A DNA stretch of 64,000 nucleotides from NCBI GenBank assembly GCA_963833985.1, contig CAWIAD010000002.1, forward strand, positions 3,488,001-3,552,000, written 5' to 3'. Positions 10,888-46,935 of the stretch are shown piece after piece. The stretch comes from an uncultured Planctomycetaceae bacterium. Lineage in GTDB: Bacteria; Planctomycetota; Planctomycetia; Isosphaerales; Isosphaeraceae. Both the position numbers and the translations under genes were made by a program. Below the pieces are notes generated by a model that saw only the letters and a list, made by a program, of their open reading frames with translations, was not told the DNA's origin and did no database searches. Numbering within the stretch: position 1 is the stretch's first letter; every line of letters begins with the position of its first letter.

Positions 10888-10916
10888 GGACTGGTCCTTG
10901 AACGTTCCCCTCCGCG

Positions 10917-17863: not shown

Positions 17864-17874
17864 AGGAGAAAGGA

Positions 17875-20452: not shown

Positions 20453-20459
20453 CCTCGGC

Positions 20460-20625
20460 CATGTCCACCTTCGTCGGCATTGACCTGGGCACCACCAACT
20501 CCGTCGTGGCGTATCGCAACCGCTACGGCCATCCGGAGGTGATCGCCAATCGCGAGGGGCAGAACATCACGCCGTCGGTGACCTACTTCGGCAGTTCACC
20601 CCTTCACTCGAGTCGGCGAGGCACA
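20460..20625 (+). repeat. Duplicated 5' end of the Hsp70-vWA gene plus 32-bp tail, copy B
   Basis: Differs from copy A at a few positions (tcc/tct, cat/cgt, aat/aac, g/a). Confidence 0.95.
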
Positions 20626-20678
20626 CGAGATCACCCAATGGGCGCACAAACCGGCAGTTGAGGAGCGAGAAGCTGACG

Positions 20679-21047
20679 ATGAGTGAACCGACCTGCGAAC
20701 CACTGGCCGAGATCACCCGGCGTCTGGTGGCCGAGCTCAATCCGGATCAAATCATTCTTTTCGGCTCGCGCGCGTGGGGACATCCCCGGGAGGATAGTGA
20801 TTACGATCTCTTCGTGGTTGTGCCTGAGGGTGGAATCGACGCGCTTCATCTCGCGGTCAAGGCGCATGAGTGCCTGAGCGACCTGGGCATCTCGAAGGAT
20901 GTGCTCGTCAGTACTCGGGAGAGGTTCGATCGCTTCAGTCGCGTCCCAGCTTCGCTGGAAGCGAAGATCCGCAGTCGAGGACTGGTGCTGTATGGACGAG
21001 GCCAAAAGGGAGCTGGTTCAACAATGGCTACGCAAGGCGTCGCATGA
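20679..21047 (+). CDS. MNT antitoxin 2
   Basis: LFGSRAWGHPREDSDYDL; RBS gagga. Confidence 0.88.
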   Translation: MSEPTCEPLAEITRRLVAELNPDQIILFGSRAWGHPREDSDYDLFVVVPEGGIDALHLAVKAHECLSDLGISKDVLVSTRERFDRFSRVPASLEAKIRSRGLVLYGRGQKGAGSTMATQGVA

Positions 21048-21408
21048 TCTGATCGCGGCTCGATCGCTCTCCCGAACAGAGCCGACTGTTAGGGACGTGG
21101 CGATTTATCATTGCCAGCAAGCGGCCGAGAAGGCCCTGAAAGCCTTTCTCGTCTTCAACGATCGGGAACCCGACCTGACTCACGATGTCGATCGACTCCT
21201 CGTTCAGGCTGCGGCCTTGAACTCCTCCTTCGCGGCGAGTCGACCGGCCGGCAGACGACTAACACCCTATGCAACACTGTATCGATATCCAAGTGGGAGC
21301 CTGGAGCCGAGCCTGGAACATCTCAACGAGGCTTTGCTTGATGCAGCCTCGATCTTCGATCAGACTCTTTCTTTCCTACCGGTGGACGTTCACCCTGACA
21401 GGGTTTGA
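20992..21408 (+). CDS. HEPN-domain protein 2
   Basis: MDEAKRELVQQWLRKASHDL, YHCQQAAEKALKA, THDV, RYP. Confidence 0.88.
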   Translation: MDEAKRELVQQWLRKASHDLIAARSLSRTEPTVRDVAIYHCQQAAEKALKAFLVFNDREPDLTHDVDRLLVQAAALNSSFAASRPAGRRLTPYATLYRYPSGSLEPSLEHLNEALLDAASIFDQTLSFLPVDVHPDRV

Positions 21409-21632
21409 TCGTGCTGAATGACCAGGATGGGTGCCGAAAAGAGACTGGTCAAGGGTTCGCTCATGTTCACTACCTTTTCTCACTTGACGGTCCAGGACGA
21501 CCGGCGCCAACACGCCCAAGCGACCTGGCGATTGTTTGCCCGAACTGTCACGCGATGATCCGTCGAGGGGGAGAGAACAGGCCCCTCGCAGGTCCTATTC
21601 CGGCGTCCCACGCAGACCCCTCCAAACACTGA
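21405..21632 (+). pseudogene. C-terminal remnant of an HNH endonuclease
   Basis: AHVHYL...DLAIVCPNCHAMI resembles the HNH C-terminal motif; no N-terminal part. Confidence 0.55.
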
Positions 21633-21650
21633 GGTTTTGTCGAGTCTTCC

Positions 21651-23747: not shown

Positions 23748-24661
23748 CGCGGACCGCCCCGGCGCCCAACATCGTCCAGGCTCCGCCGCGACCGCGGCCC
23801 CGGTCCGCCGCCCGCTCGGCCAGCCTGCGGCAGGCGTACGACCTGGCGCTCGCCGGCGCGATCGGCGCCCTGTTCGGGCTGTACCTCTATGTTGAGCTGG
23901 TGCAGGCCGAATCCGTCTACGTGCGCGATGCCCTGGCCGGAGGCATCATCGGCGGGTCGATCGGCTGTTTCCTGTCGGCCTGGGGGCCGTTCCGCGATGG
24001 CGCCTGGCACAAGCTCGCGCGCGCCGTGTCCTGGGGAGTGCCGGCGGCCGCGGTGGGCGGAGCGATCGGGCTCGTGGCCGGCGAGCTCGTCATCGGCCTG
24101 CTGCGGGGGGGCCTGCTGGGCCGTGCCTGTTCCTGGGCCGTCCTGGGGCTGGGCATTGGCCTGGGCCAGGGCCTTGCCGAGCGGTCGCGGCAACGTCTTG
24201 TCTTCGGACTCATCGGCGGCGGGCTCGGCGGCTTCGTCGGCGGTTACTGCTTCGAGCTGCTGCGGGTCGCGCTGGGCAACCGCTACGACCTGGGCCAGGC
24301 CGTGGGCATTGTCATCCTGGGCGGCGGGCTGGGCCTCTTCCTGGCGCTCGTGGAGCAGGCCTTGCGGAGGGCCTGGATCCAGGTGCAGAGCGGTCGACAA
24401 GAGGGCCGTACGTACCTGCTGGCGCACCGGCACTGCCGGCTTGGCCTGGACGAGCGGGCCGAGGTGGGCCTCTTCGGCGATCCGGAAATTGCGCGCCAGC
24501 ATGCCGAGATCGAGGCCACGCCCCAGGGATTCATTTTCCGCCACCTGGCGGCGCAGCGGTCCTCGCGGCTGAACGGGAAGCCGGTCACCGGTCCGGAGCC
24601 CTTGCACGACGGCGACCGGCTGGAGCTCGGCAAGACTACCCTGCTGTTCCGACAGCGCTAG
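23744..24661 (+). CDS. Multi-pass membrane protein with C-terminal FHA domain
   Basis: Gly-rich TM helices; IARQHAEI, LNG, LHDGDRLELG; ATGA coupling. Confidence 0.85.
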   Translation: MTRTAPAPNIVQAPPRPRPRSAARSASLRQAYDLALAGAIGALFGLYLYVELVQAESVYVRDALAGGIIGGSIGCFLSAWGPFRDGAWHKLARAVSWGVPAAAVGGAIGLVAGELVIGLLRGGLLGRACSWAVLGLGIGLGQGLAERSRQRLVFGLIGGGLGGFVGGYCFELLRVALGNRYDLGQAVGIVILGGGLGLFLALVEQALRRAWIQVQSGRQEGRTYLLAHRHCRLGLDERAEVGLFGDPEIARQHAEIEATPQGFIFRHLAAQRSSRLNGKPVTGPEPLHDGDRLELGKTTLLFRQR

Positions 24662-24670
24662 CGAGCGGAC

Positions 24671-26182
24671 ATGGCAAGCAGGCAAGACCCCACTCACTGG
24701 ATTCTCGAACTGGCCCGCGGCCGGGAGATCGGGCACCGGTACACCCTCGCCAGCGGCGACACCGTGCTGGGCAACGACCTGGCCGGCGCGGCCGGGTTTG
24801 ATATGTCCGGGCAGGAGCCGAGCTCTCCCCGGCGCATGGCCGGCCGGCATGCCTGCCTTACCCTGGCCGGTGGATCACTCGGCATCCGGGACATGGAGAG
24901 CCCCGGCGGCACCTTCGTGAACCGCCAGCGCCTGCTTTCCGGCCAGACGCGCGCGCTCCAGCCCGGCGACGTGATCCAGATGGGCGGCATTCAGCTCGTC
25001 GTGAAGCGGGAAGCCGCGTCCCCGGCACCTGCGCCATCACCCCCGCCCGTGCCGACGCCACTCCAAGCAGAACCGCGACCGCAACGGCAACCAGAACCGC
25101 CCACGCAGGCCAAGGCCGGCCCGCTTGCCGTGCCGTTCACGATACAGGGCGGTCCCACGTGCCGGAGCTGGGATGATTTCTTGACGATCTCGGCCCAGCG
25201 CTGGAGCGTCATGCGGGACGAGCTGACCTCGGGCCGCATCGGTGCGCACCTGAGGCGGGCGGGCCGTACCGACCTGGTCCCGCGTCTGGACCCGGCACTG
25301 TCGGCCGACGAGCAGCTCGACGCCTGGCTGGCGCAATTGCCGGCGAGCCGGTCCAGTGCGCCGGAGCTCGAGGTGCATCCGCCGTTGTTGATCGTGAAAG
25401 GCCCGGGCGGCGGGGTGATCCGCAAATCGCTGCGCGTCACCAACGTCGGCTACCGGCTCTTGCGGAGCACGGCGCGCATCGAACCGCCAGCAAGCACGAA
25501 CCTGCGGATTGGTGCCGAGCTCGCCTCCAGGAGCTTCGCCACCATCGACTCCACCGACCTTCCTGTTGAGATCACGCTCCCGGAACGCGGTGAGACCGCG
25601 GCGCTGGGCTTGGTCGTCATCGACAGCAATGGCGGCACTCAAAAGGTGGAGGTGCGCTTCGAGCGTTCCGTCGCCGGTTTCCTGCCGGCCGACGCGTTCC
25701 CTGCGACCGCAGCGCCCGACCTGCTCGCGGGAACCCGGCCCCTGGGCGAGCGGGTGTCTGCGCAGCCCTTTGTCCGCCGGCTGATCGTGCTGCCGATCGT
25801 CCTGGTGGTCTTCCGGTTGCTGGTCCTGGCGGCGGGACAGATCCCGATCGGGACCCCGAACGCCGGCGGGTTCGAGCCGCGCCTGGGCTCGCTGGCGCTG
25901 GTGCTGGGTGCCGTGGGGGCGGTCCTGGCCAGCACGCGGCAGCGCGCCGGCGGCGATCGTTTGGCGTGCGGGTTCAGCGGTGCGATCGCCGGAGTGCTGG
26001 CCGCGGCCATCGGTTTCGCCGTGGTCCGCGGCGTCGAGGCGACGCTTGGCAGTTGGGCCGGCTCGCCGGTCGCCGCACTCGCGCTCTGGGCGGTGATGGG
26101 GCTGCTCATCGCGCTGGTCTCGTGGCTGGCTTTTCCACCGGCCCCAGCGCTTTCCGCGCTTCCACCGGAGCCGCAACCATGA
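24671..26182 (+). CDS. FHA-domain protein with Pro-rich linker, beta domain and C-terminal TM helices
   Basis: MAGRHA, DMESPGGTFVN, LQPGDVIQMG. Confidence 0.82.
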   Translation: MASRQDPTHWILELARGREIGHRYTLASGDTVLGNDLAGAAGFDMSGQEPSSPRRMAGRHACLTLAGGSLGIRDMESPGGTFVNRQRLLSGQTRALQPGDVIQMGGIQLVVKREAASPAPAPSPPPVPTPLQAEPRPQRQPEPPTQAKAGPLAVPFTIQGGPTCRSWDDFLTISAQRWSVMRDELTSGRIGAHLRRAGRTDLVPRLDPALSADEQLDAWLAQLPASRSSAPELEVHPPLLIVKGPGGGVIRKSLRVTNVGYRLLRSTARIEPPASTNLRIGAELASRSFATIDSTDLPVEITLPERGETAALGLVVIDSNGGTQKVEVRFERSVAGFLPADAFPATAAPDLLAGTRPLGERVSAQPFVRRLIVLPIVLVVFRLLVLAAGQIPIGTPNAGGFEPRLGSLALVLGAVGAVLASTRQRAGGDRLACGFSGAIAGVLAAAIGFAVVRGVEATLGSWAGSPVAALALWAVMGLLIALVSWLAFPPAPALSALPPEPQP

Positions 26183-27243
26183 CAATCAGAGCCATCACGG
26201 CAAGTCTGCTGGCCGCACTGGCCCTCGTGGCCTGCACGGGGTCAGCCGGCGCGGCGTGGGACGAGGAGCCACCCGATCGCGGTGTGGCGAACCAGCCCGG
26301 CGAGAGCACGGTCGTGGTGACGGGCGCCAGCCAGCAGCAGTTTCCCCGCATCGCCGTTCAGTTCGAGGTCCGCCAGCCCGATGGCTCGTTCCTGCTCGAC
26401 GCGACGCGCAACGAGTTCCGGGTCACGGAGGATGGCAAGGACGTCGAGGTGCTCGACTTTCAGGCACCCCGGACCAGGGAATCCATTCCCACCACGATCG
26501 TACTGGTCGTCGATCACAGCGGCAGCATGGAGCAAGAGCACCGGATCAGCTCGCTCAAGGAGGCCGTCATTTCGTTCCTGCAAAAGGTGCCCGAGGGCTC
26601 GCGGGTGGCCGTCGTCGGCTTCAGCTCGGAAGTCCGCGAGCTCTGCCCGTTCACGACGGACCGCGCGCAGGTCGGCCGATCCGTCAATCGGCTCAGGCCG
26701 GGAGGTGCCACCCGGTTTTACGACGCCGTCTCGCACGCGCTGGGGATGCTCGACGAGCAGACCGGACGACGGGCGGTGCTTGCCCTCACCGACGGGGAAG
26801 ACACATCCAGTGAGGACGATACGATCGAGACGGCCATCGCCAAGGCGCAACGGCTGGGATTGCCGGTCTACACCCTGGGCCTTGGCACCGAGGAAGAGAT
26901 CGCCAGCGCCGACCTGCGCCGCCTGGCCACTTCCACACGCGGCCAGTATTACCCGGCGCACAACGCCGACCAGCTCAAGACCATCTACGAGACCATCGCC
27001 GCCCGCATCGGCGCCGGTTACACGCTGGTTTACCAGAGCGACCGGCGTCTTCCTGACGGCACGCTGCGGCCCGTGAAGATCTTTCATCGCGGCAGCCAGA
27101 AAGCGGGCGAAACGGAAGTCTTCATACCCGGCATGGTGGTCCCCGCGGGTGGCTGGTCGGGTCTCTTCCTGGCGCTGCTGGCACTCCTGTCAACGCTCGC
27201 GCTGCTTCCATCGTGGACGAAACGACGCGGTGGAACTCGTTGA
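26179..27243 (+). CDS. Exported vWA-domain protein with C-terminal membrane anchor
   Basis: Signal peptide; DHSGS, GATRFYDA, LTDGED; ATGA coupling. Confidence 0.88.
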   Translation: MTIRAITASLLAALALVACTGSAGAAWDEEPPDRGVANQPGESTVVVTGASQQQFPRIAVQFEVRQPDGSFLLDATRNEFRVTEDGKDVEVLDFQAPRTRESIPTTIVLVVDHSGSMEQEHRISSLKEAVISFLQKVPEGSRVAVVGFSSEVRELCPFTTDRAQVGRSVNRLRPGGATRFYDAVSHALGMLDEQTGRRAVLALTDGEDTSSEDDTIETAIAKAQRLGLPVYTLGLGTEEEIASADLRRLATSTRGQYYPAHNADQLKTIYETIAARIGAGYTLVYQSDRRLPDGTLRPVKIFHRGSQKAGETEVFIPGMVVPAGGWSGLFLALLALLSTLALLPSWTKRRGGTR

Positions 27244-27290: not shown

Positions 27291-29150
27291 ATGGGACCGC
27301 GACGTCATCTGGCTCGCTGGCTCCGCCTCGCCATGATCTCGGCGACTGGTGCGCTTTTGATCCTGAGCCTGATGCTGCTTCCGGACCTGGCGGGATTTCT
27401 TCCCCGTGTGATTCGCAACCACGCGCTGGAATGGTCGGCCCTGGCACTCGTGCTGGCATTGTGGCGGCTGCACGTTGTCACCTTGGCTCAACCGCCGGAT
27501 GATCCCGCGGCTGCGCGGCTGCGCCGGTTGTTCGCGGGTCTCGATTCGCTTTCCGCCTTCGTCCTCGATAGCGGGTTCGTCGTCCTGCTGGGCATCATGG
27601 CCGCGGCGATGCTGGCGAGCTGGATCCCCCACTACTTGACGTGGCCCTGGAGCCGCGACGCAGACAGTTACGCCACGCTCGCCCTGTCCTGGGATGCGGG
27701 CGTCCGGCCGTACCGCGATATCCTCTTCTATAACTTCCCCGGGCACGTTTACTTGCACTGGCTCATCGGCCGGACCTTTGGCTGGGGGCGGACTGTCCCG
27801 TTCTACGCGGTGGACGCGACGGCCCTGCTAGCGCTCGGTGCGGTTCTCCTGGCCTGGAGCCGGCGCGCGCTGGGACGCTGGCTGCCGGGTCTGCTGGGGT
27901 ACGTCGTGTTCCTTGGCTTCTACCTGGGCCGAGATTTCGAGCAGGTCGCCCAGCGCGACTGGCATACGTCGCTGGCCGCGGCCCTGGCGCTCTTGACGCT
28001 GGAGGCCTGGCCGCGACGCGCCGGGCTCTGGGCGGCGGCCCTGCTCACGGCCCTGGCGCTGACCATCCGGCCTCACGCGGTGCTGTTCTTGCCGGCGCTC
28101 GTCGCGGCCGTGGTCCAGCGTCCTCGACCCTGGCAATCCCTTGCGGAATGGATCTCAGTGCTCGTGCTCCTTGTCGCGCTCGGGTTCGTGCCGGTGGCGG
28201 CGCAGGGGTTGCTGCACGACCTGGTACGCAACCTGAGAGTCGCCAGCTACGGCGGTCCTTACAACAAGGCGACTCTCCCCGGCGCGCTCGAGATCCTCGC
28301 CGCCGAGCTGAGCGAGCCCTGGACGCTGCTTCTGGCTGGCTCGCTGATCGTGCTCTCCTTTGCGGGCCGGGAACGCATCCGTCCCATGGCGCGGACCTGG
28401 CTGCTTGCCCTGGGAGCAGCCATCCTGTACCGGACGGTTCATCCCCGCCAGCACGCCTACCTGGCGCATCCGCTGGTTCTCTTCAGCTCCATCGCCCTGG
28501 CGTTGCTGGTGGACAGCCTGATCGCGGCGTCCTGGCCTGGCCGGTCCGTGCGCGCGCTCGTGCTGCTGGTGCTCTTCCTCGAAGCCTTTCCGGGCGTGCC
28601 GCAGTTCTGCGATTCGCGCGCCAGTATCGAGGCCATCGGGCCGCTGGTTCGGGGCGAGGAGCCCGCCGACCCTCCCCCCAGTGTTCGCTATCTCTGGTTC
28701 CAGCCCGTGGCGTGCCCCTACGAGTGGACCGACTACCGCGACACGCTGAACTACCTGCGCCGAACCACGAGTCCGGCCACCGAGATCGCCAACGTGCTCA
28801 AGCAGCCTCCGTTTCCTGCCATCAATGGGCCGGTGGGCCGGCTTTCGCCGTTCCATGCCGACTCGGGCATCTGCTGGATGTGGCTGGTGGACCTGGATCT
28901 GGAGATCCCCTTCGCCGAAGCTCTGGAACGCACGCCGGATTCGGTGGTCGTCTGGTCGCCCGCCGAGGTGAACCTGCCGACCCGCCTGCGGCTCGAGCGG
29001 ATCACGGAGGTGATCCTCCACTTCTATCGTCCCGCAGCGCGGTTCGGCGCGATCGAGGTCTGGACGCGTCAGCCGGATGTGGACAGCGGACGGACGCCGG
29101 TTGCGGGGAATCCGGGCTCCTCGGGGACGCTTCCACCGGTCCAGCAGTAG
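27291..29150 (+). CDS. Polytopic membrane protein, GT-C-like glycosyltransferase, paralog 1
   Basis: DADSY...PYRDILFYNFPG loop after the first TMs; many TM helices. Confidence 0.65.
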   Translation: MGPRRHLARWLRLAMISATGALLILSLMLLPDLAGFLPRVIRNHALEWSALALVLALWRLHVVTLAQPPDDPAAARLRRLFAGLDSLSAFVLDSGFVVLLGIMAAAMLASWIPHYLTWPWSRDADSYATLALSWDAGVRPYRDILFYNFPGHVYLHWLIGRTFGWGRTVPFYAVDATALLALGAVLLAWSRRALGRWLPGLLGYVVFLGFYLGRDFEQVAQRDWHTSLAAALALLTLEAWPRRAGLWAAALLTALALTIRPHAVLFLPALVAAVVQRPRPWQSLAEWISVLVLLVALGFVPVAAQGLLHDLVRNLRVASYGGPYNKATLPGALEILAAELSEPWTLLLAGSLIVLSFAGRERIRPMARTWLLALGAAILYRTVHPRQHAYLAHPLVLFSSIALALLVDSLIAASWPGRSVRALVLLVLFLEAFPGVPQFCDSRASIEAIGPLVRGEEPADPPPSVRYLWFQPVACPYEWTDYRDTLNYLRRTTSPATEIANVLKQPPFPAINGPVGRLSPFHADSGICWMWLVDLDLEIPFAEALERTPDSVVVWSPAEVNLPTRLRLERITEVILHFYRPAARFGAIEVWTRQPDVDSGRTPVAGNPGSSGTLPPVQQ

Positions 29151-29162
29151 TGAGCCGAAGGC

Positions 29163-31038
29163 ATGATGACCCGGACGAAATGGAGGCACTGGCTACGCAT
29201 GCTGCTGGCGGCGGTTGCGATCGCGCTGGCGGGCGCCGGACTGATGATCGTTCCGGACACGATCCGGTTGTGGCCACGCTTCCTCCGCGACCATCCCCTG
29301 GAATGGCTATGCCTGGGGCTCGTGATCGCGTTCCAGCAGGCCAGATCGCACGCGCGGTCCCGGCCGCTCGATGACCCGGGAGCCGTCCGGCTGCGCGGGT
29401 CTCTGGCCCGGCTCGAAGAATCTCAGCGGCCGCGCCTTGAACGGGGGATTCACGGTGGCCCTGGCCATCCTTATTATCATCCTCCTGGCAAGCTGGATCC
29501 CCCATTACCTGACCTGGCCCTGGTGCCGCGATGAGGACACCTTCGCCACGCTCGCCCAGTCGTGGGACGCCGGCATCCGACCGTATCGCGACATTCGCGC
29601 GTATAACTTTCCGGGCCATATCTATCTGCACTGGCTGCTCGGCAAGGTTCTGGGGTGGGGACACACGGCGCCCTTTTACGCCGTTGATGCGTCCGCGGTG
29701 CTGGGGCTGGGCGTGGCGCTGGTGTTCTGGAGCCGGCGACGACTGGGAGGATGGCTGCCCGGCCTGCTGTCCTTCGTGGCGTTCCTTCAGTTCTATCTCA
29801 GCCGCGAGTACGAGCAGGTCGCCGAGCGTGACTGGCACGCGACGCTCGCAGCCGTCCTGGCGATCATGACGCTCGAGGCATGGCCGCAGCGACCGGCCGT
29901 CTGGCTGGCCGCGGCGCTGGAGGCGGCAGCCGTGACAATCCGTCCCCATGCCATCTTCTTCCTGCCCGCGATCGCCTCGGCCCTCATGGAGCGGCGCCGG
30001 CCGCGCCGAGGGCTCGCCGAGTGGGGCCTGGCGTTCACCGCGTTCGTCGCCCTGGCCTTCGCGCCGCTGGTGATCGACGGATTGCTCGACGACCTGATCC
30101 GCGGACTCCGCGTTGCCGCGTACGGAGGTCCCTACAGCAAGGCCTCTCTGACCGTGGCCAGAGAGGCGCTTGAGCTCGAGCTGCGTGATCCCTGGACAAT
30201 CTTCCTGGCGGCGTCGCTGATCGTGGTCTGGGCGTTCCACCGCCTTGTCGGCCGTCCCATGGCGCGGACCTGGCTGCTCGCCCTGGCAGCCGCGATCCTT
30301 TACCGGACGGTTCATCCGGTTCAGCATGCGTACCTGATGCATCCGCTGGCCCTGGTGAGCGCGATGGTCCTGGCCCTGCCGGTCGCCTCATTGCTTTCCC
30401 TGTCCTGGATTGCGCAGCCGGTGCGCGCGCTGCTGATCCTGCTTCTTTTCCTAAAAGCCTTTCCCGGTCGGCCCTTGAACTGCGATCCGGGCGACAGCCT
30501 GCGCGCGATCGTCTCGATAGCGTGCGGCCAGGACCCGGAGGCTCCGCCCTCAGGCTGCCGCTACTTCTGGTTCCGGCCGAAGGCGTGCAATTACGAGTGG
30601 CGTGACTACTGCCGGACGCTGGCCTACCTGCGGCACACCACCAGTCCGGCGACCGAGATCGCCAACGTGCTGCGGCTCCAGCCGTTTCCATCGCTCAATG
30701 GGCCGGTGGGCCGGCTTTCGCCATTCCGGGCGGAATCCGGGATCTGCTGGATGTGGCTGATCGACATCGACCTGGATGGTCCATTCGCCGAGGCCCTGGA
30801 AAACACTCCGGATTCGGTGGTGGTCTGGTCGCCCGATGAGGGTGATCGCCAGCCGCGCCTGCGGCTCGAGCGGGTCTCGGCGGTGATCCGGCGTTGCTAT
30901 CGTTTCGACGCCCGGTTCGGTGCCATCGAGGTGTGGAGGCGATCCGCTGCGGACGAAGCCGCGCGAACTCCAATGCCCGGCAGCCCCGCGGCATCGGGGT
31001 CGAGCCCGCCCGCGATCGCAGTGCCACCCCGACGATAG
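29163..31038 (+). CDS. GT-C-like membrane protein, paralog 2, frameshift near 29418
   Basis: Colinear with paralog 1 (WIPHYLTWPW, PYRDI, GPVGRLSPF, SGICWMWL). Confidence 0.65.
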
Positions 31039-33344: not shown

Positions 33345-33443
33345 TGGCGGGAGCGTATGGGAATCGAACCCACCAGGAGCCTGTTTCCAGACCCCTCACC
33401 GGTTTTGAAGACCGGGCCCGGCACCAGCCATGGACACGCTCCC
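33345..33443 (-). tRNA. selC: tRNA-Sec (anticodon UCA)
   Basis: 8-bp acceptor stem GGGAGCGT/ACGCTCCC, anticodon loop CTTCAAA, long variable arm, GGTTCGATTCC, encoded CCA. Confidence 0.95.
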
Positions 33444-33712: not shown

Positions 33713-36097
33713 TCAGGGTTCGTAGCAGCCGGGGATCAGTATCGAGGGGACGCGACCGGCGGCGTGCAGGCGAAGCAGCGCGTGGCCCGTGCCCGCCAGG
33801 CCGAGCATGAGCGAGGGGTTCACGGCCGTGGACACCAGGCCGGAGGGGTAATCACAGGCTGTGCCGTGACGCTCGATGAGCACCCGCGCGATCTCGCCGG
33901 CCTGGTCGAGACACGCAGGGTCCTGGAGCTGAATTCCGGCGCAGAGCAGCACTTCAAGCAGTCCGGCCAGTCCGTGGCAAAGCGACGCGTCATGCCCGCG
34001 CCGTGGAAGGTTTTCCTGGACCGCGGCCAGGGTCGTCGCCAGGGCAGCCTGCGCCATCGCGCGGTGCCCTTCCCCTTGCTCCGGGTCCAGGGCCATGGCG
34101 CGCAGGCGGGCGAGTGCGATCCCGGGCGCGCCATGGCACCAGGCCCGGCCATGACCGGGAGGACGGGGCGGTCCCAGGGCATCCACGGTGAACCTCAGAT
34201 CCGGCCAGTTGCCGGCGGCCTCGTCGAAGAGGGAATCCTCGTAAGCGAAGGCGCCGCGGGCAGCTTCCTGGTAACCGGGGCGTCCCGTTGCCGCATGCAG
34301 CTCCAGCAGGGCCAGGGCAATGCCCGAGGCGCCGTGGCTCATGCCCGTGAGCGGTAGCGTCGCGGCGGACCCATCGCCGACGGCACCGGAGGACCACATC
34401 CAGATCGGGCCGGCACGGTCGGCCTGGCGGCAAAGCTGGTCACCGAGAGCCCGCGCCCATGCAAGGTGACGCTCGCTCCGGACAGGCGGGGCCAGCTCCC
34501 GGTGCAGGGCCAGCAGCGCGAGGATCGCCCCGGCGCTGCCGCCGATCAGGTCGATGGCATGCGGTTCGTCGACGGCCTCGTCGAGATGATCGAGCAGGAT
34601 CTCCGCCCGTGCGTGCAGTTCGTCGGCGCGGGTGAGGACGGCCACGCGATGCGCTGCGTACGCCACGCCGAGCTGGCCCGCGAACAGTGAAATGGGCGCC
34701 AGAGCGGAGACCGGGTCCTGCCAGTCGGTGACGGCCCGGAGCGAGCGGTTCATGGCGGCCATGGCGGTGCGGCGCAGCCCATGGTCCCCGGTGAGCCCGT
34801 GAACCTCGGCCAGGAAGAGGGCAACGCCCGCTGATCCGCCGTAGAGCTCCGGCCCGAGCGCCGCGGACGCGGGAACGATCGCACCACCGGGCTTCAGTTC
34901 GTCGGGAGAACGGCCCATCCAGTTGCAGAGAAGACCCGACGTGTCCCAGAAGGCCGCACGGCACAGGCTCTCAGCAATGCGGACTGCCGCGTCCAGCGGC
35001 GAAAGGGTCCGCTGTACAGCAGGCGCCGGGCCGCCCGCACTTGCGATCGACGGACGACGCTCCGCACAGGGCCTCCAGCCGGATAACGGCTCGAACGACG
35101 CGAACGTCGAGCCGGGCGCGAGATACGGGTACGCGGGGTCGAGTTGATTCTGGCGGAACGACTCGATGACCACCTGCAAACGGTCATCACCGATGCGGCC
35201 CCTGGCAAAAGCGTCCCAGAGCGCCCCTGCAATCAGCCGGCAGCGATGCTCGCCGTAGCTTGGTGAAGCCGGCGAGACCTCGACCATGGCCAGGCCGTCC
35301 GCCAGGCGATGCGTGAGCAGGGGCGTTTCAGGCCGCAGCTCCGCGGCGACGGACTCATAGATCGGCCCCATGGCACCGGCCAGGGCAGGGGCGTGGCGGC
35401 GGCCCACGTACAGGACTCCGGCGTCGGCGCGATGGTAGGCATCCGGATCTCTCAGGACCTTGAGCCGGAACGGGATGGCGCGCGCGTTCAGAGCGGAGCT
35501 TGCCACGGCGACGAAGCGTGTTGCGGCCTGGCGCGTGAGGTGCCAGTAGAACCGCCATTGTCGATCGCCGCCGTTTACCACGTCATCCAGCGCATCCTCG
35601 TCGGCATCGCCGTGAACGTAGAAGAACCCGGGCATGAGATGCCGCAGTTCCCTGGGAACGCGAAGCCGGCAGTGCTCTCCGGGAATCAGGCGGCCGCTGC
35701 CGGTGCGGACGTCCCGCGCGCTGGCCCGGACCTCGAGGTCCCCGCGGCCGACGACGACCTGACCGTCGTCTTCGACCACACGGACGGTCCAGTCCGGGCT
35801 CCAGGCGCCTTGCCCCGCATTCGCCGCCGACAGCGCGGCCAGGAAGTCGCGGCGGTCGCTCCAGCCCGAGCCGCAGGGAATTCCGGCTGGCGCGCTTCGG
35901 GTGTAGAGCCGGCGGTAGAGCTCACCGGCGAGCGAGTTCAACAGCGGCGCTGGACCTGGTTGTGGATCGTCCGACGCATCCCCCTCGCATTCTTCGAATT
36001 GCCGCGTGTCGTCCAGGATCCGGTAGCCCGCGGGCGAGAGGATCTGGACAGCCTGCACCATGGTTTCCAGGTCGGGATGGAAATGGACTTGCGGCAT
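33713..36097 (-). CDS. HopA1-like (LanY/TvaD-type) phospho-lyase fused to a Zn-dependent LanC cyclase
   Basis: N-half RFYWHL, FRLKVL, RADAGVLY, SYGEHRCRLIA; C-half LYGGSAG, DLIGGSAG, GMSHGASG, WPDLR, WCHGAPG, LCHGLAG; ATG overlaps the kinase TGA. Confidence 0.85.
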   Translation of the reverse strand: MPQVHFHPDLETMVQAVQILSPAGYRILDDTRQFEECEGDASDDPQPGPAPLLNSLAGELYRRLYTRSAPAGIPCGSGWSDRRDFLAALSAANAGQGAWSPDWTVRVVEDDGQVVVGRGDLEVRASARDVRTGSGRLIPGEHCRLRVPRELRHLMPGFFYVHGDADEDALDDVVNGGDRQWRFYWHLTRQAATRFVAVASSALNARAIPFRLKVLRDPDAYHRADAGVLYVGRRHAPALAGAMGPIYESVAAELRPETPLLTHRLADGLAMVEVSPASPSYGEHRCRLIAGALWDAFARGRIGDDRLQVVIESFRQNQLDPAYPYLAPGSTFASFEPLSGWRPCAERRPSIASAGGPAPAVQRTLSPLDAAVRIAESLCRAAFWDTSGLLCNWMGRSPDELKPGGAIVPASAALGPELYGGSAGVALFLAEVHGLTGDHGLRRTAMAAMNRSLRAVTDWQDPVSALAPISLFAGQLGVAYAAHRVAVLTRADELHARAEILLDHLDEAVDEPHAIDLIGGSAGAILALLALHRELAPPVRSERHLAWARALGDQLCRQADRAGPIWMWSSGAVGDGSAATLPLTGMSHGASGIALALLELHAATGRPGYQEAARGAFAYEDSLFDEAAGNWPDLRFTVDALGPPRPPGHGRAWCHGAPGIALARLRAMALDPEQGEGHRAMAQAALATTLAAVQENLPRRGHDASLCHGLAGLLEVLLCAGIQLQDPACLDQAGEIARVLIERHGTACDYPSGLVSTAVNPSLMLGLAGTGHALLRLHAAGRVPSILIPGCYEP

Positions 36098-37240
36098 CAC
36101 GCGGACGACCCGGTGGAAAGGCCGTAGAAACCAAGCCGGCCGCGACACGTATCGGCCAGCAGGTTGGCGCCAAGCTGGAGCAGGAGCACGGCCTGTGTGG
36201 GCAGGACTTCCCGCTCCAGCGACAGCTCGTGCGCCGCCTGGATGAGACGTGCCGCCGAGAAGGCGACCGCGCGCTCGAGCAATTCCAGGGCGCTTGAGCC
36301 ACCGGCGCCGGCGTGGCATGACGCCGTCTGGGAGTACCCTTCCCAGAGCGCTCGGATGGCGGGTCGCAGCGCGCTCAGGGGATACTTCGCCCGACCGATC
36401 ATCTCTTCCACGGCGAGTTCCGGCTTCAGGGGCATGGACCCGATCCAGAGCATGACAAAATCGTGCAGGGCCGAGGCCAGGTCCCAGGCGGGGTCGCCGC
36501 GGTGCACGAATTCCCAGTCGACGAGCCAGATGGAAGCACTCGCGACCGATTGCCCCTCGTGTGTGCTGGCGACAAGGATGTTGTCGGCCTTGATATCGCC
36601 GTGAATGACCGTCTCTTCCCGCCACATCGCACCGAGACGCTCGACGCGGCTCCCAGGCCGGCTGCGCTGCGAAGGAGCCGGAACACGTCGGCCCCGGCAG
36701 GGCTAAGGTCGATGAGCATGCCCGGAGTCGGTTTCCGATGGGCCGCGAAGACCCAGGGCACCGGCCGCCCCAGCCAGCCTAGGCTGTCGTGGGCTGCCAG
36801 TTCCGGCCCGCGGAACACCCCGTGCAACGTGCCCAGCGCCCGGCCCAGGGCGTGGCTGGGCGCGACCGGGAACGCATCGGCCGGGTGTCCAAGATGGTGG
36901 GCGAGCAGAGTCCGGCGCCGGGAATCAGTTCCAGGGCGTGGGCCCCGTCCTCGCGGTCGAGCCAGCGGAGGCCTGGCAAGTACCTTGCCAGTTCCGCGGC
37001 TGCCGGTTCGTTGTGGCAAAAGTCGTAGAAGTGCGCTTCGTTCCTGAGCGTGTGGGAACTGGCCGGCGAGAGCGCATCGGGCTGCTTCACGAGCAGGCCG
37101 GCGCCGCCGGGTCCCTCCACCCTGAGGTTGCGGTTGCGCCGCGCCGCGCTGCGGACGGTCAGGCGGCCTTGAACGATCCAGTCTCGGTCCACGAGATTCT
37201 GTTCGAGCAAGAACGGGATCACGGTGTCGACGTCCAGCAT
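36097..37240 (-). CDS. APH-family phosphotransferase (LanK/TvaC-type kinase), frameshifts near 36912 and 36644
   Basis: RRNRN, LLVKQ, HGDIKADNIL, LVDWE, GDPAWDLA spread over three frames. Confidence 0.82.
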
Positions 37241-37339
37241 CGAGCGGCTCGCGGGTAAGGTCAGCCGGCAAAACAGGGCGGCTTGAGACGTCGGGTAACG
37301 GGTCGCATGGGCCTGCGGCGTCCGAACCGCGGCACGACA

Positions 37340-37867
37340 TCAAGGGTAAGGGTGAGGGTAGATTGGATCCGACACGCACACGCCGGTCAGGTGGCAATTG
37401 GAGGTCCCGCCAGTGCCGCCTGTGCCGCCGGTGCCACTGGGTGTCTCAACGCCTGACAGTGGCCTGCACGGCGTGGTGTGCACGAGGTTCTTGTCCTCGT
37501 TCTCGACCAGGATGTTCACGGTGAGGCCGGCCGCGGACGTGGACAGGCTTTTTGAGGAGATCGCGCCTTTCAGATACCCGGCCTCGACCTGCTGCGACGA
37601 GACCACTCGATTGATACTGGCGGTGGCGCTGACCACCAGCTTCGTGGGACTCGATTGCTGCCCGGGGACCGATCGCTCGGCCCAGACAATCTCGCCCCTG
37701 GGGATCTCCAGGTAGCAGCGCAGGTCCAGGTCCGGATAGATGGTCACGGTCTGTTCGGTGACCGTGTCGATGTAGCCGTGAAGGATGATGAACTGGCGCT
37801 GGTCGTCGGGCCTGGGCTTGAGGGCCTGGAGAAGCGGATTGGTGAAGAGTTCCAGGGAGTTGCTCAC
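37340..37867 (-). CDS. Candidate RiPP precursor: long leader domain plus Ser/Thr/Cys-rich tail
   Basis: GTG start with AGGAG; last 46 aa HTTPCRPLSGVETPSGTGGTGGTGGTSNCHLTGVCVSDPIYPHPYP contain 12 Ser/Thr and 3 Cys. Confidence 0.65.
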   Translation of the reverse strand: MSNSLELFTNPLLQALKPRPDDQRQFIILHGYIDTVTEQTVTIYPDLDLRCYLEIPRGEIVWAERSVPGQQSSPTKLVVSATASINRVVSSQQVEAGYLKGAISSKSLSTSAAGLTVNILVENEDKNLVHTTPCRPLSGVETPSGTGGTGGTGGTSNCHLTGVCVSDPIYPHPYP

Positions 37868-37962: not shown

Positions 37963-40900
37963 TCAGCGGACTCGGTTCCCCGCGAGGGAACGGCGTGCCG
38001 TCCAGGCGCTGGAGTCAAGTACGTGGATCACGCCATCGTCGCCAAGGCCAAGCCCGGTGAGGCTCTCGAGTTCGGCGGCGACATTGGCTGCATCCGCCAC
38101 ATCGGCGGCCTCCGCGGCGGACGGGGCGGCAGCCACGCTCCAGAGGCGCGCCGTGAGGTCTTCACAGCGCGTCAGGACCGCGCGATCGTCCGGCGAGAGG
38201 GCAACGCTGAAGACCTCAAAAGGGTCTCCGCCCGGTTTGCGAGGATGCGCAAGGGCCGGGCCGATGGGCCGTCCCGTGCCGGCATCCCAGAGGCTGGCCG
38301 TCCCGTCCTGGCTGCCTGTCAGGGCCAGCCGTCCGTCCCGGCTGAAGGCCACGGTCGTCACCGCGGCCTGATGCAGCAAGGGCTGACCGCGCGGCGTGCG
38401 GGACGCGGCATCCCACAATCTGGCACGCCCGTCGATGCAGCCTGTGAGGACGGTCTGGCCGTCTGGACTGACGGCCACGGCGGCCACGCCGGCCGGGTGG
38501 ATCAGGGGGGCTCCGCGCTGCACCCCGGTTGTGATGCTCCAGAACCGGGCCTGGTTGTCGAGGCAGCCGCTGACCAGGGTCTCTCCATCCGGGCAGAGCG
38601 CCAGCGCCACGACCGGCCCGGTATGCGGCAGCGGAGGCAGCTTCGCGGCCCCGGTGTCCGGGTCCCAGAGTCGCACGGTCGTATCGACGCTGGCGGTGAT
38701 GGCCGTGCGTCCGTCCCGACTGAACCGGCCCTCGAAGATCACCGTCTCGTGCCTCAGCACCGCGCCGCGCGGGACTCCGCTCTGCACGTCGCAGAGGCGG
38801 GCCGTGCCGTCCAGGCTGCTGAAGAGCACCGTTCTCCCATCCGGGCTGAACGCGGCCGACTTGACCCGCTTCGCGAACCGCAATGCCTGGCCCACTGGCC
38901 GGAGAGCCGCCAGGTCCCAGAGCTGGGCCCCGCCGTTTTGTCCGCCCACCGCGACGCACTGTTCGTCCGGGCTCGACGCCAGAACGCTGACCGGCTCGCC
39001 CGTGGCAAGAGGAGCGGCTTGCGGCTGCCCGGACGTCGCGGAGCAAAGCAGCACCGTGCCGTCACCTGTCCCCAGCAGGAGGCGCTTGCCGGCGGACCCG
39101 TAGGCCGCGTACTGCACCGCGCCGGCATGCGGCAGCTCGCGGACCGCGTTCCTGTCCGGCCGCGCGTCCCAGAGCCGGCTGGTCCGGTCGGCCCCGGCGG
39201 TGAGGAGCTTGAGACCGTCGGGACTGAATGCCACGCTGTTGACCCTGCTCTCGTGGCGAAAATCGCGGCCCAGCGGCCGGCCGGTGCGTGCGTCCCAGAG
39301 CCGTGCCGAGTGGTCCCAGCTGCCCGTTGCCAGGGTCTGGCCGTCCGGGCTGAACGCGAGGGACCAGACCCGGTCATCGTGCCGCAGAATATCCCCCCGG
39401 CGCAGTCCCGTGGCAACCTCCCAGAGCCGCGCCGTATGGTCGGCTCCCGCGGTTGCCAGGGTCTGCCCGACCGGGCTGAAGACGGCCACCCAGACCTCGC
39501 CGTCGTGCGCCAGCTTGTGCAGCAGACGGCCGCTGGAGACGTCCCAGAGCCGAGCGAAGTGATCCGCGCTGGCGGTGGCCGCGACCTTGCCGTCGGGGCT
39601 GAGATCGACCCACTTGACCTGGTTCTCGTGTCGCCAGGGTTCTCCCAGAGGCCGCCCCGTGGCAACCTCCCAGAGCCGCGCCGTGCCGTCGTCGCCACCG
39701 GTGAGAAGCGTCTCTCCGCCGGCTGCCAGCGCCACCGAGACGATCCGGTCCGGATGGCCGGGTAGCTCACGCAGCAGCCGGCCGTCGGCCACGCTCCAGA
39801 GGCGCGGCTTACCGTCGGCGCCAGCCGTCACGAGCCGCGTTCCGTCGGAGCTGAAGACCCCCTGAGACACCTCGCCGCGGTGTCCCACGAGGTCGTGCCG
39901 CAGTGCCCCGCTGCCGGCATCCCAGAGCCGCGCCTCGCCGCTCAGGCTGGTGGTGAGCACCGTCTTGCCGTCAGGGCTGAACGCCCCGGTCCAGACCACG
40001 CCCCGGTGCGGCAAGGGCGGTCCCACGGGCATGCCGCTCGTGGTATCCCAGAGCCGTGCGGCCTGGTCGGCGCCGGCGGTGAGCACCGCCTTGCCGTCGG
40101 GGCTGAAGGTGGCGAACTTCACCTCGCCGGCGTGCGAGAACACCGCCTCCAGGTTCGGGTAGGAACGTTGCCAGGCCGCCAGGTTCTCCCGGGCGATGCG
40201 CGCAGCGCGGGGTCGCCGGCAGCACGAGCGGCATGCAGACTGCGGGCCAGCCAGTGGAGACCGGGGCCAACATCGCCGCGCTCGCAGGCGGCGCGGCCGA
40301 GCCCGAAATCGAGCACTGCAAGCTCACGGGTGGACTGGTTCAGCAGGCGAGCGCGGTTCAGGGAATAGAGGGTCGAGAGGATGGTCACGGCCACCAGGGA
40401 GGCCGACATGCCTCCCAGGGCGGATGCCAGCGCGGGGTTGCGCAGGCACCAACGCCAGGCGCGCTCCGCCGAGCTGACCGGCCGGGCCTTGATCGGTTTG
40501 TTCTCGAGGAACCGCCGCAGGTCCTCGCTCAGCTCCGCGGCCGTCTGGTAACGGCTGGCAGGGGTCTTGTGCATGGCTTTCAGGCAGATCGTCTCCAGGT
40601 CCCGCGGAACCCGGTCGTTGAGCTTACGGGGGGGCCGTGGATCATCATGGATCACCTGGTCCAGCAGCATCCGCGCTGTCCCGTGAAACGGCAGCTCGCC
40701 ACTGATCATCTGGTAGAGCACGACGCCGAGGCTGTAGACGTCGCTGCGCCGATCCACCTTGCTCTGCTCGCCGCGCGCCTGTTCGGGAGGCATGTACGCC
40801 GGGGTGCCGAGGATCTGGCCGTCCACCGTGATCGAGATCTCGCCGGCCTCGCGCTTGGCCAGCCCGAAATCCATGAGGATTGGCTGGCCCTCGTTGTCGA

Positions 40901-41676
40901 TCATGATGTTCTGCGCCTTCACGTCGCGATGCACCACGTTCCCCTGGTGGGCGGCGTGCAAGGCGTCGGCCAGCTCGGCCGCCGTCCAGGCCGCCTCCCG
41001 AAACGTGGGCCGGCGGGTCTTGAGCGACTCGGCGAGCGTCACCCCGGTGATGAAGTGGCTGACGATGTACGGGATGCCCTCGAACTCGTCAGCCTCGATC
41101 ACGCGGACGATGGCTCGATGGTTGAGCCGGGCAACGGTGCGCGCCTCCTCCCAGAACCGCTCGCGCGAGCCGTTCTCACCCAGCGAGCCGGCGCAGCAGC
41201 TTCACGGCGACATCACGCTGGAGCTTCGAGTCGTAGGCCCTGTAGACCGTGCCGAACGCGCCGGTGCCGACCGGCTCGACCAGCTCGTACGAGGAAATCC
41301 GGTTCGTGCCCAGGGAAACCGTCCGGGGCAGCCTCACGGAGCTGCCAAGGGCAATTCGCGAGTGGCACGTGGGACATTCCAGGTGGTCGGCGGGCGCCTG
41401 GTCGACCAGCTCGATGCCCGCCCCACAGTTGGGGCAGTGCAGCTTGAGCGACCGCAAGGGTTCCAGCACGACCCCGTCGCGCGTGGTCTCGTGCGGCGGC
41501 GCCAGGAAGTCCTCGCGCTCGGCCTGGGCGTCGCGGGCCAGCAGCCGCTCGACCTCGGCGCGCAGGTCCGGTTCCTCACCGCAACGGCTCTGGAGCAGCG
41601 CCTGCCGCTCTTCCGCGGAGAGCGGCAACGCTTCGTGGAACAGCTCGTAGACGCGCTGCCACACACCTTCGGTCAT
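37963..41676 (-). CDS. Hanks-type Ser/Thr kinase with Zn ribbon, TM and WD40 repeats; frameshifts near 41195 and 40200
   Basis: CPNC..CPTC, GTGAFG, VAVK, HRDVKAQN, DFG, GTPAYMPPE; many FSPDG...ARLWD repeats. Confidence 0.9.
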
Positions 41677-42245
41677 TGCTTGCCTCCCTCGAGCTGGTCG
41701 CGCAGCCAGGCACGAGCGAACCGCCAGTCCAGCTCCACGGTTCCCACCGAGACCTCCAGCGCGTCGGCGACCTCGGACACGGAGAGCCCCGCAAAGAACC
41801 GCAAGGCGACGACCAGACCCTGCCGCTCGTTGATCTCGGCCAGCCTGTCGAGGGCTGCATTGAGGGCCTCGATGTCCAAGTTCTGCTCCTCGAAAAACGC
41901 CAGGGCCTCGTCCAGGGGCACCCGTTTCAGGTCCCCGCCATGGTTTTTTCGCTTGCGGTGATGGTCCACCAGCACGTGGCGCATGGCCCGCATCGCGGCG
42001 CCGAAGAGGTAACGGCGGTTCGGGGCCTTCTCGATCGCGTGCCCGTTGATCAGCCGGACGAACGCTTCCCCCACCAGGGCCGTGGGCTGGAGCGTGTGTC
42101 CCGGCCGTTCCTTGCTCATGAGAGACACGGCGATGCGATGAAACTCCTCGTAGATGGCGCGGAGCAGTTGATCCCGGGCGGGTCCCTCCCCGTTCCGGGC
42201 CGCCTTGATCAGCTCGGTCACGTTCTGCGTCTGGTTCACATTCAT
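41673..42245 (-). CDS. ECF sigma factor, TIGR02999-like
   Basis: HTLQPTALVGEAF, AMRHVLVDH, LRFFAGLS, DWRFARAWL; ATGA-coupled to the kinase. Confidence 0.9.
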   Translation of the reverse strand: MNVNQTQNVTELIKAARNGEGPARDQLLRAIYEEFHRIAVSLMSKERPGHTLQPTALVGEAFVRLINGHAIEKAPNRRYLFGAAMRAMRHVLVDHHRKRKNHGGDLKRVPLDEALAFFEEQNLDIEALNAALDRLAEINERQGLVVALRFFAGLSVSEVADALEVSVGTVELDWRFARAWLRDQLEGGKQ

Positions 42246-42443: not shown

Positions 42444-42959
42444 ATGGGGAACCCGATGAACACCCGCACCGACTGGCGGCCCGGACCGGCGATCCGGGGA
42501 CCGCACCAGGCTGAGTGCGACACGCGGAGGCTGATCGTGCCTGATCATCAGGAGAGCCGAGCCCGGCTGCTGGTTCGCCCCGTCGGCGATCTCATCGTCG
42601 TCAGGTGTTTCAGCACCCAGGTGGAATGGGACGATCCGGAAACAGGAGACCTGGGCACAAGCCTGCTTGGACTGAGCAAATTGGGCTATGTGCGCATTCT
42701 GGTCAATCTCGAGGGTATCAACTACGCGTCGGGATCGCTGCTGGGTAGTCTTGCCCATTTACATCAGGCCACCGTTCGCGCCGGGGGCTTCCTGAAGCTC
42801 TTCGGCCTGGAGGCGATCCTGCGGGACGCGCTTGTCATTTGCCGGCTCGATTCCAGGCTGGCGATTTACGCCAGCGAGTCGGAAGCCCTTGAGGGCAGCG
42901 TACCGGCCGCGGATCATGCCGGCTTGTGGATTCCGGGGGGACTGTCCCCTCGTTTCTGA
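42444..42959 (+). CDS. STAS-domain (anti-anti-sigma-like) protein
   Basis: ILVNLEGINYASGSLLGSL, GGFLKLFGL, ICRLD. Confidence 0.75.
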   Translation: MGNPMNTRTDWRPGPAIRGPHQAECDTRRLIVPDHQESRARLLVRPVGDLIVVRCFSTQVEWDDPETGDLGTSLLGLSKLGYVRILVNLEGINYASGSLLGSLAHLHQATVRAGGFLKLFGLEAILRDALVICRLDSRLAIYASESEALEGSVPAADHAGLWIPGGLSPRF

Positions 42960-44218: not shown

Positions 44219-46935
44219 TCACGGCATCTGCAAAATGTACCCTTTGCCGTCCGCCGCTGCCACCGCCATCCGTTTGCCGTCAGGGCTCCAGGCCAGCCCG
44301 TACGTGACCAGCCCATCTCCCATCTTCTGATGCCAGAGCACTTTGGCGGCCTCGGCATCCCAGACGAACAGGCTGCCGCCATACCCCAGCGAGGCCAGCC
44401 GCTTGCCGTCGTGGCTGTAGGCGACCACGTAGACGTCGTCGGGATGGCCTTCCAGCTTGTGCCACTCCTTGCCGTCGGCGACATTCCAGAGCCGGATGGA
44501 GCGGTCCACGCCACCCGAAGCCAGGCGCGCGCCGTCGGGGTGAAACGACAGGGCGTACACCGCCGCGCCATGCCCCTCGCTCTTCCGCAGCTCCTTGCCA
44601 TCGGCGGGGTTCCAGTACTTGACGAGCTTGTCGTCGCCGCCGGTCGCCAGCATGTCGCCCCTGGGAGCAAACGCCAGGGCATAGACGACATTGGCGTGCG
44701 CGTTCCACTGGCGGAGCTGTTTCCCTCCGGCCGCGTCCCAGAGCCGCACCGTCTTGTCGGCGCCCGAGGTCGCCACGGTCCTCCCGTCCGGCGTCCAGGC
44801 GACCGCGTAGACCTGGCCGGCGTGGCCGGTCAACCCGACCGGCTGCAAGGAGCTAACCTTCCAGATCCGGACCTTGCCGTCGCCGTGACCGGTCAGGAGC
44901 GACGGCGGATCGGAGCCGAAAGCGAGTGCTTTCACCGGCCCCGATCCGCGGGCGGCGAACGGCTCGGACTCCGCGCTGGCCGAGCCTTCGCCTCCCAGCT
45001 CAAAGAGCCGGGCGGAGCCGTCATCCAGGCCGGCCACCACCAGCTTGCCGTCGCGGCTGATTGCCAGGGAACCGATCGGCGCCGGCATTTTTGATTGGAC
45101 CTGCACGGCCGTGCCGCTGACCGCGTTCCAGACCCGGACGGTGCGATCCTCACCGGCGGAAAGGATCCTCGTACCGTCGGTCGAGATCGCCACCCCGCGC
45201 ACCGGCGCCGTGTGCCCGGCGAGCGAGCGGATCAGCCCGCCGGTGTTCAGATCGAAGACCAGGAGGGACCCGTCCCCCGCTCCCGCGACCACCTGGCTGC
45301 CGTTGGGGTGAACGGCGACCGCGCGCAGGGGTCCGGCATGGCCGATCATGAGCCGTACCGCGGCTGGCTTCCAGATCCGGATCGGCCCCTGCTCGGTCGC
45401 CAGGACCACCGAAGCATGATCGGCCAGGAAATCCGCGGAGCCGATGATGCCACTCAGACCGGTGAACCGCTGAAGCTCGCGGCCGCTGGCAGTCTCCCAG
45501 AACCGTAAGGGATGATCGTTCACGGCCGTGGCCAGGAACTTGCCATCACTCGAGATCGTCGCCGAGACCACGGGTCCGCCATGGTTGCCGAGCGCGGCCA
45601 TGACCTTGCCGTCGCCGACGTTCCAGAGCCTGGCCGTCCCGTCTTCGGAGCCCGTCACCAGCTTCGAGCCATCCCCGCAGATGCGCATCTTCAGGATGGC
45701 GGCGCCGTGGCCGGCAAACTCGCGGATCACCTTGCCTTCGTTCACGTTCCAGAGCCGCGCCGTCGCGTCTGCCGACGCCGAGAAGAGCTGGTTTCCATCC
45801 CGAGGTGCGTACTCCAGCGCGGTGATGCGCTGGCGGTGCCCCTTCAGCTCCTTGACCGTCTTGCCATCCGCGACCGCGATGACCCGCAGCTTGGCATCGT
45901 CTCCGCCCAGGACAAGCTGTGCCCCATCACCCCGGAGGGCAAGCGCCCTGATCGAGAACGGGACCGGCCCGATCTTCTTGACCTCCTTGCCGTCATCAAC
46001 CGAGCAGAGCCGCACCACCCGGTTCGCCAGCACGATCGCAACCCGGCGTCCATCGCCATCGAGTCCGAGCCCCTCCACGGGCTGGTCATTGCCGCCGATC
46101 TCCTTCATGAGCTTGCCGTCAGTGAGGTTCCAGACGCGGATGATCCGGTCCCCCCCGCACCCCGCAAGCCGCTTTCGATCGGCGCTCACCGCGAACTGCA
46201 CGGGCTTCCCGGCGCATCGATCGGTCTGGGCTCGCTCGCCGGCAATTGCCAGAGCCGGGCGACGCCCTCCGGGCCGGACGAGACGAGCAGGGGCTTCCCC
46301 GGGACGTAGGCCAGGGCAAGAACTGCGCTCGCGGAGGTCTCGATCTGCCCGTCCGGGTTCAGCGCGTCGTTCCAGAGCCGGATCGTGCCCGAGCCATCGC
46401 CTGCGGCAAGCTGCGCTCCATCGTGCCGCCAGGCCAGGCAAGCGACGTCGCCGGAGAAGCCTTCCAGCGTCTTGATCGCGGCTCTCCTGGCCAGGTCCCA
46501 GACCTGCACCGACCTTCCCGACGCCGTGGCCGCACGCTTGCCATCCGGAGTCACCGCCAGGGCCGTGATTGCCGGGCCTGGCCCCGGCAGGCTGCCGATC
46601 GGTCCACCCCCCGGCACATCCCAGATCCTGGCTGTGCCGTCCAGGCTGGCCGAAGCCAGCCGCCGGCCGTCGGGTGAGAATGCCACGCTCAGGACGATCC
46701 TGGAATGACCCTCGAAGCGCTTCACCTCCTTGAACGTCGCGGCATCCCAGAGACGCACCGTGTTGTCGAAGCCGGCTGTCGCCAGCAGCGCCCCGTCCGG
46801 GCTCCAGGCCACGGCGTAGACTGGGTCGGTGTGCCCCTCGAGTGTTCCCACAATTCGCGCTCGCGGAGCATCCGCCGCCCCGGCCGTCATGCTGGTGAGG
46901 AAGGCGGCAGCCATCAGGTGAAGCAGGTCCGGCAT
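44219..46935 (-). CDS. Secreted multi-WD40 repeat protein; frameshift near 46210
   Basis: Signal-like N-terminus; many GH...WD repeats. Confidence 0.85.

Follow-up and report, generated by a model that had tools for sequence, protein, structure and literature searches.

We analysed a 64,000-nucleotide stretch of an uncultured Planctomycetaceae bacterium of the Isosphaeraceae (GenBank assembly GCA_963833985.1, contig CAWIAD010000002.1, positions 3,488,001 to 3,552,000; the window in the following). Three of its genes encode a 175-aa protein, an APH-fold kinase of the LanK type and a fusion of a HopA1 (LanY) lyase with a LanC cyclase (Table 1). A preliminary description of the same DNA had read them as a lanthipeptide-like cluster for a ribosomally made, post-translationally modified peptide (RiPP) with a long precursor. 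The layout it gave holds: the three genes are co-oriented on the minus strand, the 175-aa protein with its Cys/Thr-rich tail lies upstream of the kinase, and kinase and fusion meet in a TGATG joint, in which the kinase stop TGA (36099-36097) and the fusion start ATG (36097-36095) have one base in common. Stop and start overlap as ATGA in all 13 relatives checked. The gap between precursor and kinase is 99 bp, with no other open reading frame (ORF) called within, and 95 bp separate the end of the upstream Ser/Thr kinase-WD40 sensor gene from the precursor gene. HopA1, LanC and the 175-aa gene each occur once in the host genome.

Table 1. Features of the cassette and its surroundings (positions in the window).
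Feature	Position	Strand	Remarks
Substrate/precursor gene	37340..37867	minus	175 aa, GTG start, GAAGGAG upstream
LanK-type (APH-fold) Ser/Thr kinase	36097..37240	minus	in three frames, shifts near 36912 and 36652
LanY (HopA1 lyase)-LanC (Zn cyclase) fusion	33713..36097	minus	794 aa, intact
Ser/Thr kinase-WD40 sensor gene	37963..41676	minus	frameshifts near 41190 and 40195
ECF (extracytoplasmic function) sigma factor	41673..42242	minus	Sigma70_ECF, E 5e-51; directly ahead of the kinase-WD40 gene
Divergent STAS-domain gene	42444..42959	plus	travels with the ECF-kinase-WD40 module
tRNA-Sec	33345..33443	minus	neighbouring gene

Hidden Markov model (HMM) searches bore out the domain reading of both enzymes. 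The fusion matches HopA1 (Pfam: PF17914) at residues 154-326 (E 8e-29) and LANC_like (Pfam: PF05147) at residues 414-787 (E 3e-49), and the kinase, in which the HGD and DWE motifs are present, matches APH (Pfam: PF01636, E 1.8e-8) and, below cut-off, LxmK with its C-terminal piece. The N-terminal half of the fusion also matches a solved class V lyase, that of lexapeptide (PDB: 9DK1_B, E 4e-7), and the best structural match of the C-terminal half is the LicM2 cyclase (PDB: 6ST5). In the lyase domain R182, K213, R223 and Y230 are spaced like R187, K219, R229 and Y236 of CaoY, a correspondence made by motif spacing without aligning CaoY itself; they are conserved in 61, 61, 60 and 53 of 61 homologues, respectively. 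R187, K219 and R229 of CaoY have been probed by mutation (PMC9486802). The LanC domain has the intact Zn ligands and the SHG histidine that had been pointed out before: H588 (SHG), C654 (WCHG), C707 and H708 (CHG) are kept in 58, 60, 59 and 58 of 61 homologues. Both domains are present in 96 of 115 protein homologues, and the named ones belong mostly to the Isosphaerales/Isosphaeraceae. In one relative the fusion gene is interrupted by an IS4-family element (L122:6845-8100).

The less expected component of the cassette is the unnamed folded precursor, not the enzyme architecture; the preliminary description gave this long precursor too little weight and overlooked the conserved signalling kinase upstream of it. 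The 175-aa protein has a beta-barrel domain of about 90 aa (residues ~10-92), a helix EAGYLKGAI at residues 95-103 that corresponds to an FLxGxI motif, and a tail (residues ~115-175) with C134, C158, C164 and 13 Ser/Thr; its C-terminal residue is not Cys. The barrel fold is predicted with confidence (predicted local distance difference test, pLDDT, 95-98) and is mostly beta with one short N-terminal helix. The precursor family has 256 representatives with hypervariable, Cys/Thr-rich tails, and no Pfam or NCBIfam family is common to the 128 members that were aligned. In the 141 of 154 proteins that could be separated at the motif, Cys makes up 0.4% of the barrel domain vs 9.0% of the tails, and all 135 tails of at least 20 aa contain both Cys and Ser/Thr. 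Tail length varies between about 30 and more than 1000 residues, the longest tails being Cys/Thr/Pro repeats. Giant precursors (330-1200 aa), with Cys/Pro/Thr repeats after the same barrel, are found next to separate kinase, lyase and cyclase genes (L067:278-3823, L017, L048, L078, L141).

The association of these genes was surveyed in 108 loci (80 from metagenomes, 28 from genomes), 84 of which have the lyase. Of 61 loci whose upstream flank reaches 1.3 kb or more, 59 have a kinase ahead of the lyase, and of 50 whose flank reaches 2.6 kb or more, 37 have an upstream member of the barrel-precursor family. LanC loci without a lyase match have a barrel gene in just 1 of 24 cases. Lyase and cyclase are in one frame in 24 of these 50 loci with the longer flank, and in the remainder they are split or frameshifted. 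Cleanly split loci (e.g. L017, L023, L026 and L053) have the same precursor family as fused ones, and the fusion is therefore a variant of the split system. HopA1 was found in 4 of 401 genomes across the phylum vs 24 of 121 in Isosphaeraceae, the host genome included; distant kinase/HopA1 pairs in Planctomycetes had been pointed out in 2020 (PMC7794033). Among 120 family genomes, which are kin and hence not independent counts, 19 have precursor and lyase, two only the precursor, four only the lyase (one below the cut-off) and 95 neither; within the genus the cassette is present in 3 of 13 genomes. The two genomes that have only the precursor are G442 (93% complete) and G484 (80%), and no LanK orthologue, LanC or HopA1 was found in them; both keep an ECF-kinase-WD40 module with the barrel gene, which has lost FLxGxI and has a Cys-rich but different tail.

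Two genomes each carry a tandem pair of complete sensor and cassette units (L118, G431:C43:98000-117999; L123 and L133, G428:C4). Fusions without a precursor gene (L132:3448-4011, L136:2639-3313) have as neighbours a gene with a PSP1 domain and a different Ser/Thr kinase. A HypF hydrogenase-maturation gene lies downstream of the cassette in three genomes (L116, L124, L134).

We consider it very likely that the cassette is a lanthionine-forming RiPP system like class Vb with lyase and cyclase fused, its chemistry being inferred from the genes. Domains, catalytic residues and co-occurrence support the mechanism well. LanK, translationally coupled to the fusion, would phosphorylate Ser/Thr residues of the 175-aa protein's tail, and the HopA1/LanY domain would eliminate the phosphate to give dehydroalanine or dehydrobutyrine. 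In class V, LanK and LanY assemble into a dehydratase complex (PMC9486802, PMC12141560). The Zn-LanC domain would then join tail Cys residues to these dehydro residues in at most three (methyl)lanthionine rings, T161-C164, spaced i,i+3, being the most natural pair for one of them. The likeliest docking site of the enzymes is the FLxGxI helix behind the barrel, because this motif is lost where the enzymes were not found, an argument weakened by its sample of two genomes, perhaps of one lineage.

In Isosphaeraceae, a large co-oriented sensor gene immediately precedes the barrel gene in 24 of 25 cases, L120 being the exception. Seventeen of these sensors have an FGE-sulfatase-like C-terminus, usually after nSTAND1, and six have WD40; in the untyped one (L139) the kinase is orthologous and the remainder too broken to type. 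All 18 loci extended upstream proved to have a Ser/Thr kinase domain and six of them an ECF sigma match, the background being about 131 such kinase loci per 10 Mb genome. Two relatives have the kinase-WD40 sensor in one piece of about 1160 aa, and ECF and STAS genes are conserved with WD40-type sensor loci. In a further genome, G411, the enzymes are on a separate contig and the barrel gene, with FLxGxI kept, still stands behind ECF-kinase-WD40; this makes three of three barrel genes apart from the enzymes (G442, G484, G411) that follow this module. In a quickly built tree the family cassettes cluster together and divide into a branch with WD40 and one with FGE (support 85-94), and the sensor link would therefore go back to one or two events. 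Among metagenome precursor loci, such a kinase was the upstream gene scanned in 0 of 13. The cassette in Isosphaeraceae is probably expressed or controlled together with the upstream sensor, regulation that we infer from gene order, and the placement hints that the precursor product may act inside the cell. Barrels without the motif (L191:5236-5796, L192:6958-7440 and, by eye, P0156, P0158, P0166, P0171 and P0263) form a subfamily whose tail is of the CPxGC...GxCxC type and may bind metal or form disulfides.

Several points weigh against the proposed system. The best model for the kinase, LxmK (NCBIfam: NF038156), scores far below its cut-off (83 vs 315 bits); a barrel gene is not nearby in 13 of 50 loci; the precursor HMM was iterated on the surveyed loci themselves, although the initial four-sequence model already matched 29 of the 108; no protease, exporter or immunity gene is conserved; and the kinase frameshifts discussed below belong here as well. 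The lack of conserved export functions, together with the absence of a conserved double-glycine site in the precursor family, would suit a product that never leaves the cell. The modified protein could be a retained partner of the ECF/Ser-Thr-kinase sensor, with thioether cross-linking or irreversible phosphate removal of the tail as a switch and the barrel staying attached to bind the sensor or to self-associate. Such a role is compatible with lanthionine chemistry and differs in the purpose of the product. It would explain why the sensor stands directly ahead of nearly all family barrel genes, the three separated from their enzymes included, with its kinase domain in every extended locus, and why the barrel is so confidently folded. 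Yet many RiPPs rely on proteases and exporters encoded elsewhere, the one or two events behind the sensor link may be plain synteny, the kinase was not seen upstream in the 13 precursor-bearing metagenome loci scanned, and hypervariable tails suit ordinary core peptides, so we regard this role as rather doubtful. It is far less probable still that the 175-aa gene encodes an accessory protein similar to a RiPP recognition element (RRE), the true precursor being a short peptide elsewhere. The length and mostly folded nature of the protein fit such a function, as do the two genomes that retain the barrel gene without the enzymes and the loci with enzymes and no barrel gene. However, an RRE consists of a strand plus three helices, a layout unlike the predicted barrel with its single short helix; moreover, tails in the family reach over 1000 aa of Cys/Thr/Pro repeats, and the short interval up to the kinase holds no further ORF.

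The kinase of the window, aligned to whole homologues, has no segment missing, and its pieces are 37-58% identical to them, without in-frame stops or large deletions. We think it likely that its frameshifts are assembly errors. Cassettes are broken, at scattered places, in 16 of 20 cases in assemblies of at most 150 contigs vs 0 of 3 in assemblies of at least 570 contigs, and errors of long-read assembly should give such breakage concentrated in few-contig assemblies, contig number serving only as a proxy. This tally is a hand count from a tblastn table; L130, which is of the split type, and L136, which lacks a kinase next to it, were excluded. The other possibility is that LanK and the kinase-WD40 gene truly carry these shifts and that the host organism's cassette is dead. 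Four shifts in about 8.5 kb stand against a genome-wide rate of at least 0.1 per kb, taken from a self-comparison with 700 of the 3558 long ORFs in which 943 kb of paralogous sequence showed 92 shifts. The two in the 1.14-kb kinase alone exceed this rate (P about 0.006, the rate being a lower bound) and rpoB and rpoC are whole in the host genome, so local decay has to be reckoned with. The patchy occurrence within the genus and the relative with the inserted element would also fit a cassette that is being lost. The lack of stops and large deletions, the intact fusion and precursor genes and the pattern across assemblies speak against it, and we hold decay to be unlikely. Elsewhere in the window (9114-12355 and 44219-46935), gltX-like, aat-like and WD40 genes seem split over frames, consistent with assembly frameshifts.

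Among the 29 window ORFs scanned there was no match to LanB, LanM dehydratase, LanD or YcaO, as the preliminary description had stated; the sole methyltransferase match lies 22 kb away. The tRNA-Sec gene sits 269 bp downstream of the fusion, with the cassette on its 5' side. Two Hsp70-like genes, one fused to vWA, are found with FHA and vWA genes at 16193-27240, and the two paralogues between them are presumably Uma2-like. Tandem paralogous membrane proteins of 619 and 555 aa (27291-31038) have no Pfam match and look glycosyltransferase-like by eye. Further genes encode a DDE transposase (53753-54655), a DNA-methylase-like protein (59674-60702) and a multiheme cytochrome/TPR protein (61635-63569).

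The cassette supplies the likely substrate family of the fused enzyme: unnamed precursors with a folded leader, widespread and beyond the lengths that short-peptide mining covers. The fusion is directly testable as a three-gene construct from an intact relative. The spread of tail lengths suggests that the enzymes are very tolerant and could serve for making poly-thioether peptides. If the kinase link is functional, lanthionine chemistry would act on a signalling protein. Should the machinery modify a retained cytoplasmic barrel protein of the ECF-sigma/Ser-Thr-kinase sensor module, for which we see a small chance, thioether cross-linking or phosphate elimination would be a regulatory modification in bacterial signalling and not lead to a secreted peptide, and copies lacking the enzymes would then represent that sensor module with its Cys-rich tail left unmodified.

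With class II LanM and class IV LanL the fusion shares the C-terminal Zn-LanC domain (best matches TIGR03897 and LicM2, 6ST5), but it has neither a DUF4135 dehydratase nor an internal kinase, the kinase being a separate gene. An assignment to class II was rejected, with TIGR03897 covering only residues 365-778 at 255 bits (cut-off 304) and no PF13575, as was class IV, with no kinase domain in the 794-aa protein and NF038150 at 107 bits (cut-off 650). NHLP/Nif11 precursors likewise have a rigid folded leader and a short motif ahead of variable cores and serve a lanthionine synthetase; it is a helical bundle by which they contact class II LanM (PMC12537861), whereas the precursor here is a beta-barrel without a match to them. 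None of the 128 members carries an NHLP or Nif11 family and the predicted model is mostly beta, so this leader type was discarded. The dehydratase pair and the spacing of the catalytic Arg/Lys/Arg/Tyr resemble class Va (cacaoidin CaoK/CaoY, lexapeptide LxmK/LxmY, PDB: 9DK1). LanD and LanX belong to class Va and LanC does not, while the cassette here has LanC and no LanD or LanX nearby; a class Va lanthipeptide or thioamitide was set aside on the presence of LanC and on the lack of a LanD/LanX or YcaO/TfuA match in the flanking ORFs scanned, a local search.

The closest system is class Vb, which combines LanK, LanY and LanC and forms only (methyl)lanthionine rings (PMC12291118, PMC11186320, PMC12328550); these papers give mSmoA (Pei et al., JACS 2022) as an example. 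The premise of the preliminary description, that class V does without a Zn-LanC, is thereby wrong, and the architecture is not outside the known classes: HopA1-LanC fusions had been flagged in 2021, when 20% of HopA1-like proteins were reported near or fused to LanC and the fusions were suggested as a possible new, uncharacterised synthetase (Eyles et al. 2021, PMC8153245). Its coupling of class V-style dehydration to LanC cyclisation fits the domains, residues and co-occurrence; its novelty does not stand. A literature search found no characterised HopA1-LanC fusion and no description of the precursor, two points on which the full text of Pei et al. and the supplement of Eyles et al. may bear. 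Families 11/20 and 22 of Eyles et al. also have HopA1-LanC in one chain beside a phosphotransferase, with the same proposed chemistry, but their precursors stem from a short-peptide search (PMC8153245). Six barrel-domain motifs gave no relevant row in two datasets of that study, where overlap with its figures or supplement is possible. As in class Vb, an APH kinase and a HopA1 lyase would dehydrate and a dedicated LanC would cyclise, with no LanD, LanX or aminovinylcysteine machinery nearby. The cassette has a stand-alone, if frameshifted, LanK kinase (PF01636) and a dedicated Zn-LanC (PF05147), while its LanY (PF17914) shares a chain with LanC; it would therefore work like class Vb and is filed as a fused variant. 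It differs from class Vb in the fused lyase-cyclase, the protein-sized precursor with a folded barrel, the planctomycete host and the linked Ser/Thr-kinase sensor. The enzymes follow a known plan, and the fusion was already predicted in 2021; the link of a sensor kinase with the precursor is new here.

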